A stretch of DNA of 4,151 nucleotides, taken from Escherichia coli (GTDB lineage: Bacteria; Pseudomonadota; Gammaproteobacteria; Enterobacterales; Enterobacteriaceae). The number at the start of each line of letters is the position of its first letter. Within the stretch, counting starts at the first letter, position 1. The stretch lies in NCBI RefSeq assembly GCF_003334785.1, contig NZ_QOWV01000048.1. The stretch is one strand, 5' to 3'. The translations under genes were made by a program, and so were the position numbers. Below are positions 1,941-2,099 of the stretch, piece after piece. The notes beneath the pieces were generated by a model. It was not told where the DNA came from and did not search any database. It saw only the letters and a program-made list of their open reading frames with translations.

Positions 1941-2099
1941 GACTCGTGACTTGACTCTAGAGTCGTAAAGGTCAAAAAAACATCAAAATGACGATTCAAC
2001 TCTAGAGTCAAGTCATCATAAGTTACTGATAGTCTTAAGTGAGTCGTCGATGACTCTATGACGAGTCGTCAGCAAGTCGTACACGAATCGCCGACGACT
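1941..2099. repeat. Cluster of GAGTC/GACTC and AGTCGTC repeats, including an inverted-repeat pair GACTTGACTCTAGAGTC (1948-1964) / ACTCTAGAGTCAAGTC (1999-2014)
   Basis: Read directly. The second copy matches the reverse complement of the first over 16 bp, each centred on palindromic TCTAGA, separated by an A-rich 34-bp spacer. Direct GAGTCGTC copies at 2041 and 2064, AGTCGT at 2075, inverted CGACGACT at 2092. Confidence 0.8.

Follow-up and report, generated by a model that had tools for sequence, protein, structure and literature searches.

What is the dense cluster of GAGTC/GACTC repeats that fills the non-coding segment between the cer-like site and the 3' end of an HTH gene in a small plasmid of Escherichia coli? 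The stretch of DNA analysed here (4,151 bases; hereafter the window) goes once round a circular ColE1-like plasmid of ~4.07 kb and overlaps itself by 76 bases; plasmid RCS83_pI of E. coli ECOR 10 (NZ_LT985290.1) is essentially identical to it. A sequence-only reading had delimited the cluster to 1941-2099 and had left its role between a protein-binding array (centromere-like, iteron-like or operator), a second nick or recombination site and a relic of a second replicon. We propose that positions 1901-2106 very probably constitute a TraM-binding array, equivalent to sbmA, sbmB and sbmC, within an origin of transfer (oriT) of F-like (IncF/MOBF) type, complete and located at ~1915-2295, in a 4.07-kb ColE1-like plasmid devoid of relaxase, traM and traY. 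Read as a TraM array, a conspicuous and unannotated repeat cluster finds an explanation.

The ORFs of the window encode a Wzz(FepE)-like protein, Rom, the HTH protein and small ORFs. No relaxase ORF is found in the whole window, the RefSeq record lists three CDSs with no relaxase among them, and traM and traY are absent from the window plasmid. This gene content is that of a pOriT plasmid, namely an oriT without relaxase or mating-pair genes. A separate ColE1-type bom region, which we take to resemble the bom sequence of pBR322, lies outside the oriT that contains the repeat cluster; 4,825 plasmids match it, 4,417 of them typed mobilizable. Judged from its sequence, the window plasmid thus carries two different oriTs, one F-type and one ColE1-type bom, and no relaxase. 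Beside the bom region, a 49-aa ORF (3362-3511, - strand) corresponds to the conserved hypothetical protein WP_001515742.1, for which an NCBIfam search returns no match. The cargo ORF of 303 aa matches the LPS O-antigen length regulator Wzz(FepE) (E = 1e-130) over profile positions 3-298 of 368, and the C-terminal part is absent.

The unit common to all repeats of the cluster is GANTC, a palindrome of 5 bp. It occurs in exact form from 1936, 1941, 1953, 1960, 1993, 2005, 2041, 2052, 2063, 2085 and 2102 onwards, in-phase copies with one mismatch start at 1948, 1998, 2010, 2074 and 2096, and further motifs at 1901, 1913 and 1925; the variants include AAGTC, GACTT and AACTC. Specifically, the 181 bp from 1930 to 2110 contain 11 exact GANTC motifs, compared with 0.69 on average and never more than 6 in 20,000 shuffles, and 13 motifs are spread over the 3,894 bp outside this stretch. 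The 11 exact and five phased one-off motifs at 1936-2106 lie 92-262 bp 5' of the predicted nic and fall into three clusters (Table 1). In cluster 1, the starts (1936, 1941, 1948, 1953 and 1960, the third being a one-off variant) follow alternating 5- and 7-bp steps, with alternate motifs 12 bp apart. In cluster 2 (1993, 1998, 2005 and 2010, the second and fourth being one-off variants), motifs 1 and 3 and motifs 2 and 4 are each 12 bp apart. The phased starts of cluster 3 are 2041, 2052, 2063, 2074, 2085 and 2096, of which 2074 and 2096 are one-off variants.

Every repeat feature listed in the sequence-only reading is present, and several of its measures need adjusting. The inverted pair, given as 16 bp with a separation of 34 bp, consists of TGACTTGACTCTAGAGT at 1947-1963 and ACTCTAGAGTCAAGTCA at 1999-2015, which are 17 nt long, 100% complementary and 35 nt apart; cluster 1 holds its left arm and cluster 2 its right arm. 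The direct repeats, all within cluster 3, comprise GAGTCGTC at 2041 and 2063 and AAGTCGT at 2074, 11 bp further on; the spacing of about 11 bp holds, and that of 23 bp is in fact 22 bp. The inverted CGACGACT of the same cluster occupies 2092-2099. As to extent, 1941-2099 falls within the array, which begins ~40 bp further left, and the element to which it belongs reaches ~2295, ~200 bp beyond the right-hand limit.

Table 1. Features of the window plasmid, in order of position (a slash marks the predicted nick).
Feature	Position	Strand	Description
RNAI	172-272		Rfam match reaching gathering score
Truncated Wzz(FepE)-like gene	595-1506	-	profile match
cer-like Xer site	core ~1566-1595	-	read from sequence
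Array left edge	1901-1930		three motifs, 12-bp phase: AAGTC 1901, GACTC 1913, AATTC 1925
Putative oriT element	~1915-2295		colinear with IncF oriTs
GANTC cluster 1	1936-1964		sbmA-like by position (furthest from nic); GATTC GACTC gt GACTT GACTC ta GAGTC
GANTC cluster 2	1993-2014		sbmB-like by position; GATTC AACTC ta GAGTC AAGTC; TA centre
IHF-consensus-like site	2019-2031	-	TATCAGTAACTTA, 1 mismatch; between clusters 2 and 3; weak
GANTC cluster 3	2041-2106		sbmC-like by position (nearest nic); six motifs in 11-bp phase plus GATTC 2102
Spacer	2107-2170		homologous to TraY/IHF-binding part of IncF oriTs; 62% identity to L002, 61% to L003
IHF-like site	2145-2157	-	1 mismatch; within spacer; weak
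Hairpin (inverted repeat) 5' of nic	2173-2188	+	CAAAAT ttta ATTTTG; 6-bp stem
Relaxase recognition and nick core	2185-2203	+	TTTGCGTAGGGTGT/GGGTA; columns invariant in alignments
Leading-side oriT flank	2204-2295	+	GTGGTGAGGAG at 2211-2221 common to IncF plasmids; similarity decays beyond
133-aa HTH gene	2301-2702	-	overlaps rom stop codon
rom	2702-2893	-	
Separate ColE1-type bom/oriT region	~3533-3720		blast matches to typed plasmids; outside the oriT of the GANTC array

Recognition of GANTC by TraM is known from the pED208 system, in which a crystal structure of TraM bound to sbmA together with EMSA shows that the motif is read by residues Lys3, Gln5 and Tyr7 (Wong, Lu and Glover 2011; PDB 3ON0; PMC3159463). 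There, one ribbon-helix-helix dimer binds each GANTC of four staggered motifs and the tetramer contacts motifs 12 bp apart; a motif pair at 11 bp is bound better than an isolated 12-bp pair, and a distance of 10 bp abolishes binding (PMC3159463). R1 TraM is also reported to bind GANTC, F TraM, which has Asn5, reads A(G/C)CG(G/C)T, and the interval from nic to the traM promoter of F-like plasmids is the location of sbmC, sbmB and sbmA (PMC3159463). The array of the window occupies the corresponding place relative to the predicted nic. Clusters 1 and 2 of the window resemble pED208 sbmA in their staggered GANTC motifs, in the distance of 12 bp between alternate motifs and in their palindromic centre, and the 17-bp inverted pair corresponds to two four-motif palindromes of sbmA type. 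Unlike the sbmA of pED208 and R1, cluster 3 has six motifs in 11-bp phase and no four-motif palindrome. Additionally, several motifs of the window are off by one position in comparison with pED208 and R1, and the TraM sites of the window are putative. TraM binding is allele-specific in F-like plasmids, and the presence of the motif alone is no proof for a given helper. The suggestion of a protein-binding array was right in kind, the array being a putative TraM array.

Comparison with plasmid sequences points in the same direction. A megablast of 1900-2200 retrieves 426 plasmids, mostly small Klebsiella replicons, with no annotation under the match. A sensitive blastn of 1900-2300 retrieves 4,164 plasmids, 2,613 of them typed conjugative; these are mostly Klebsiella IncF plasmids and match only 2110-2220. 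Three of the conjugative IncF plasmids have the match at the native position of oriT, between traM and the SLT transglycosylase gene of the leading region, and the traM-to-SLT intergenic region aligns colinearly with the window from ~1915 to ~2290-2295; with the native locus L002, colinearity sets in at ~1915-1921. The segment thus matches a known kind of element, an oriT, with a function that has nothing to do with the neighbouring genes, the outcome that the sequence-only reading had named as refuting its own proposal. A relic of a second replicon finds no support.

The native IncF oriTs (NZ_CP056217.1, pRHBSTW-00982_2; NZ_CP034085.1, pR210-2-CTX; NZ_CP019904.1) present the same order of TraM array, spacer, hairpin, nick core and leading-side flank as the window. 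What differs is the surroundings, as cer replaces traM/traJ/traY on the left and the HTH-rom backbone replaces the SLT gene and leading region on the right. Identity between native oriTs and the window amounts to 78-82% in the core at 2171-2225, compared with 39-52% in the sbm stretch. GANTC or near-GANTC motifs are found at the same aligned positions, and in the native locus L002 they are in register with those of the window despite only 52% identity. The homologous stretch contains 17 exact GANTC motifs in L002 and 11 in L004. At the columns aligned to cluster 2, L002 reads GAATT GAATC ta GAGTC AATTC, and at position 1925, where the window has a variant, both L002 and other small-plasmid alleles have GATTC. 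The 11-bp-phased cluster of six motifs recurs in L002 and L004, and in every small-plasmid allele, too, its six positions are occupied by GANTC or by one-off variants. In line with these sites, the TraM N-termini of the three native plasmids (MAKIQAYVS, MARVQAYPS and MAKIQVYVN) have K/R3, Q5 and Y7; the two plasmids with Lys3 are those with 17 and 11 GANTC motifs.

A side observation concerns NZ_CP019904.1 (IncFII; L003), whose TraM has Arg3 and whose motif positions read AACTC, AAGTC, GAGTT and GACTT, with two exact GANTC. This combination hints that the Arg3 TraM may be a specificity variant that reads RANTY.

The nick core lies ~95 bp to the right of the repeat cluster. It is homologous to TTTGCGT(G/A)GGGTGT/GG (the last slash marking nic), as aligned to F, to a Klebsiella oriTDB entry and to the three native IncF plasmids. 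The position of nic after GTGT comes from the 35-bp oriT segment of F and from the GGT that stays attached to TraI once the strand is cut (PMC3074121), and in Klebsiella oriTDB entry 100096 nic is GGTGT/GGTGA in an identical context. By this alignment, the nick is predicted between 2198 and 2199 on the + strand. F reads TTTGCGTGGGGTGT/GGT at the nick core, and the invariant block that the window shares with native oriTs is AAAATTTTAATTTTGCGT(A/G)GGGTGTGG, with GCAAAAACTTGTTTTTGCGTGGGGTGT/GGTGCTTT as its F counterpart. The neighbouring hairpin is GCAAAAT ttta ATTTTGC with a 7-bp stem in native IncF(K) plasmids and GCAAAAACttGTTTTTGC in F, and the stem in the window is one base pair shorter than the former. 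As in F, the nicked strand has the array on the 5' side of the predicted nic. The earlier idea of a second nick or recombination site is thus borne out insofar as the segment belongs to a second transfer origin; the predicted nick itself lies ~100 bp to the right, outside 1941-2099.

Between array and hairpin, TraY may bind the spacer at 2107-2170, as its position suggests. The two IHF-like sites are placed by position as well, since IHF consensus matches in the whole window (8, with 5.6 expected) are not above chance; the ACTGAT of the site at 2019-2031 is partly conserved. On the leading side, the oriT element ends just short of the HTH gene's stop codon at 2301.

Is this oriT maintained, or is it a remnant? 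An alternative that we consider improbable holds that the segment is a decayed, non-functional F-type oriT relic that hitch-hikes on the ColE1 backbone and is used by no present helper. It would fit with the absence of traM and traY, with the degenerate state of some motifs and with MOB-suite typing, which classes 309 of the 426 segment carriers as non-mobilizable and the window's own record as mobilizable. It would also fit with the native plasmids, as none of the conjugative plasmids sampled carries the same sbm allele, the closest being L002 with 52% identity over 1936-2106. Large plasmids more than 88% identical to the segment are, among those inspected, either tra-less IncFIB plasmids (L006 and L019) or cointegrates with a small-plasmid backbone (L007 and L008).

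The pattern of conservation nevertheless speaks against decay. We aligned eight further small-plasmid loci with diverged alleles (L009-L016) together with the native oriTs. Relative to the window, the small plasmids are 94-100% identical in the 1900-1935 flank, 91-96% in the nick core and hairpin and 91-99% in the 2226-2295 flank, compared with 60-82% at 1936-2106 and 45-98% in the spacer at 2107-2170. Within 1936-2106, the GA.TC columns of six diverged alleles are 87% identical to the window, the N column 42% and all other columns 54%, and the observed value was not attained in any of 20,000 column permutations. GAGTC, GATTC, GAATC and GACTC interchange freely at fixed positions. Conservation restricted to GA.TC is what a constraint by TraM contacts predicts, which argues against a dead relic and for continuing selection on those contacts. 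Additionally, the segment is present in ~930-1,000 PLSDB records, its carriers including a widespread group of small Klebsiella and E. coli plasmids, and closely analogous plasmids are efficiently mobilised (PMC9282650).

As separate observations, some relatives of the segment adjoin colicin/cloacin genes or IS26-linked cargo, and a search for a co-resident IncF plasmid by neighbouring accessions led, in strain CX21, to a 147-kb IncFIA/FIB/FIC/IncN plasmid that is typed non-mobilizable.

A still less probable alternative, and one that we regard as very unlikely, is that the array serves the adjacent 133-aa HTH protein as operator, centromere or iteron set. Physical adjacency is in its favour, as the HTH-rom operon lies ~190 bp downstream of the array in most small-plasmid relatives. 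The protein itself gives a generic HTH_17 match and a weak, sub-threshold NCBIfam match to rep_pAB02_ORF2, a plasmid-replication DNA-binding family. However, array and gene can be separated both ways. Native IncF conjugative plasmids, in which the array lies upstream of traM, lack the HTH gene, and tra-less IncFIB plasmids have the array without the gene as well. Conversely, HTH homologues at 71%, 59% and 44% identity have neither a GANTC array nor an F nick core within 900 bp. Because each occurs without the other, we reject an operator, centromere or iteron role of the array for this protein, as the sequence-only reading had considered, and the linkage in small plasmids is, as far as these alignments go, backbone linkage. 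Moreover, the array lies past the 3' end of the gene rather than at its promoter, and GANTC has a structurally defined reader in TraM. A more plausible target of the HTH protein may be found elsewhere in the plasmid: five TGTAGT repeats (2981, 2992, 3003, 3045 and 3056) stand in 11-bp phase 90-170 bp upstream of the rom-HTH operon, the window contains six copies of this hexamer with 1.5 expected, and the repeats at 2981-3061 look like iterons or an operator. In tblastn, the HTH protein has homologues in 1,976 plasmids, and the most distant of them (~29% identity) are annotated as ColE1 entry exclusion protein 1.

GANTC is also a target of methyltransferases and restriction enzymes, and the notion of a cluster of CcrM/HinfI-type methylation or restriction sites, or of a structured RNA gene, can be set aside as extremely improbable, because positional homology with the TraM sites of oriT fully explains the GANTC enrichment, only RNAI reaches the Rfam gathering score in the whole window with nothing in 1900-2300, and a promoter and terminator scan of 1850-2320 finds no such site. 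A sub-threshold Rfam miRNA match lies elsewhere, at 3259-3289.

Returning to the TraM-array reading, we infer by analogy with the F, R1 and pED208 systems that TraM binds the array, that the oriT is nicked and mobilised and that the window allele has a cognate helper. In such a model, a co-resident IncF plasmid would supply TraM, TraY, TraI, TraD and the pilus. TraM tetramers would load cooperatively, their ribbon-helix-helix domains reading the 12-bp staggered pairs of clusters 1 and 2 and the 11-bp run of cluster 3, and TraY and IHF would bend the spacer at 2107-2170. TraI would then nick the + strand at 2198/2199, beside the hairpin at 2173-2188, and array-bound TraM would dock the relaxosome to the coupling protein TraD, allowing transfer with the relaxase provided in trans.

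The stretch from the cer core to the nick core (1562-2220) is shared with L006 (3649-4304; 96% identity) and L019 (3526-4181; 89%), which are IncFIB Klebsiella plasmids of 130-135 kb without traM, and in both of them the F leading region (SLT, DUF5983 and DUF932) directly follows the shared module. The module ends at the Xer core on one side and at the nick core on the other, and the crossover interval in L006, ~2173-2201, includes nic. These coincidences suggest that the cer-to-nic module may be exchanged by site-specific or short-homology recombination at the Xer and nick cores; a comparable recombination model appears in the title of an article about qnrB19 plasmids.

Within this module, the cassette of TraM and TraY/IHF sites (1936-2170) is hypervariable among small plasmids, with at least four alleles seen. 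The spacers of L011, L014 and L016 are nearer to that of the pKpQIL-like L004 than to the window. None of the sampled small-plasmid cassettes closely matches a sampled conjugative plasmid. A tentative scenario, which we put forward as a possibility that is doubtful on present evidence, is that hitch-hiker plasmids, instead of just copying the oriT of a helper, evolve their own cassettes under selection for GANTC phasing only, either as generalist arrays that many TraM alleles can use or as rapid arms-race tracking of helper specificity, and that cassettes are swapped as a cer-to-nic module between two site-specific recombination sites. The allele diversity of the cassettes could serve to predict pairings of helper and hitch-hiker.

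Pieces of the plasmid backbone, including the GANTC array, also occur in E. coli chromosomes, at 10 places among 5,426 genomes. The copies inspected, L017 (NZ_CP019280.1) and L018 (NZ_CP093011.1), are integrated backbone fragments, one of them flanked by IS26 and another beside a CTX-M-27 region.

If the oriT is functional, IncF plasmids, which predominate in clinical Klebsiella, could transfer these plasmids. A complete and functional F-type oriT in plasmids typed non-mobilizable would mean that current typing underestimates mobility, and going by sequence, several hundred small plasmids so typed are probably IncF-mobilisable.

The borrowing of an oriT is already a known route for the transfer of small plasmids, and the array is a new allele of a known kind, not a new mechanism. 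Relaxase-less pOriT plasmids have an oriT of the type that conjugative plasmids use and rely on a helper (Ares-Arroyo et al. 2023, PMC10123127). The oriT mimics of staphylococci are likewise relaxase-less and helper-dependent, with an oriT of the conjugative-plasmid kind (PMC8136818), and helper-dependent transfer of oriT-only plasmids is described in Klebsiella (PMC10691111). The survey of pOriT plasmids in E. coli stressed that they arise from conjugative or mobilizable plasmids through gene loss (PMC10123127), whereas the ColE1 backbone of the window retains its own bom and contains an F-type oriT module foreign to it. The closest parallels are pSe-Kan (HQ230976) and pKPN2 (AF300473), both ColE1-like, which lack mob genes and have two oriTs, one of ColE type and one of F type next to cer; pSe-Kan is mobilised by the tra genes of F at ~0.69 per donor with the relaxase provided in trans, and efficient mobilisation by an F' plasmid is reported for pKPN2 (PMC9282650). 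Going by their description, the window plasmid is like these two in being small and ColE1-type, with an F-type oriT by cer, a ColE-type bom and no relaxase. It differs in the allele: the oriT of pSe-Kan and pKPN2 is ~90% identical to that of F, whereas the window has a GANTC-type allele joined to a nick core like that of Klebsiella IncF plasmids.
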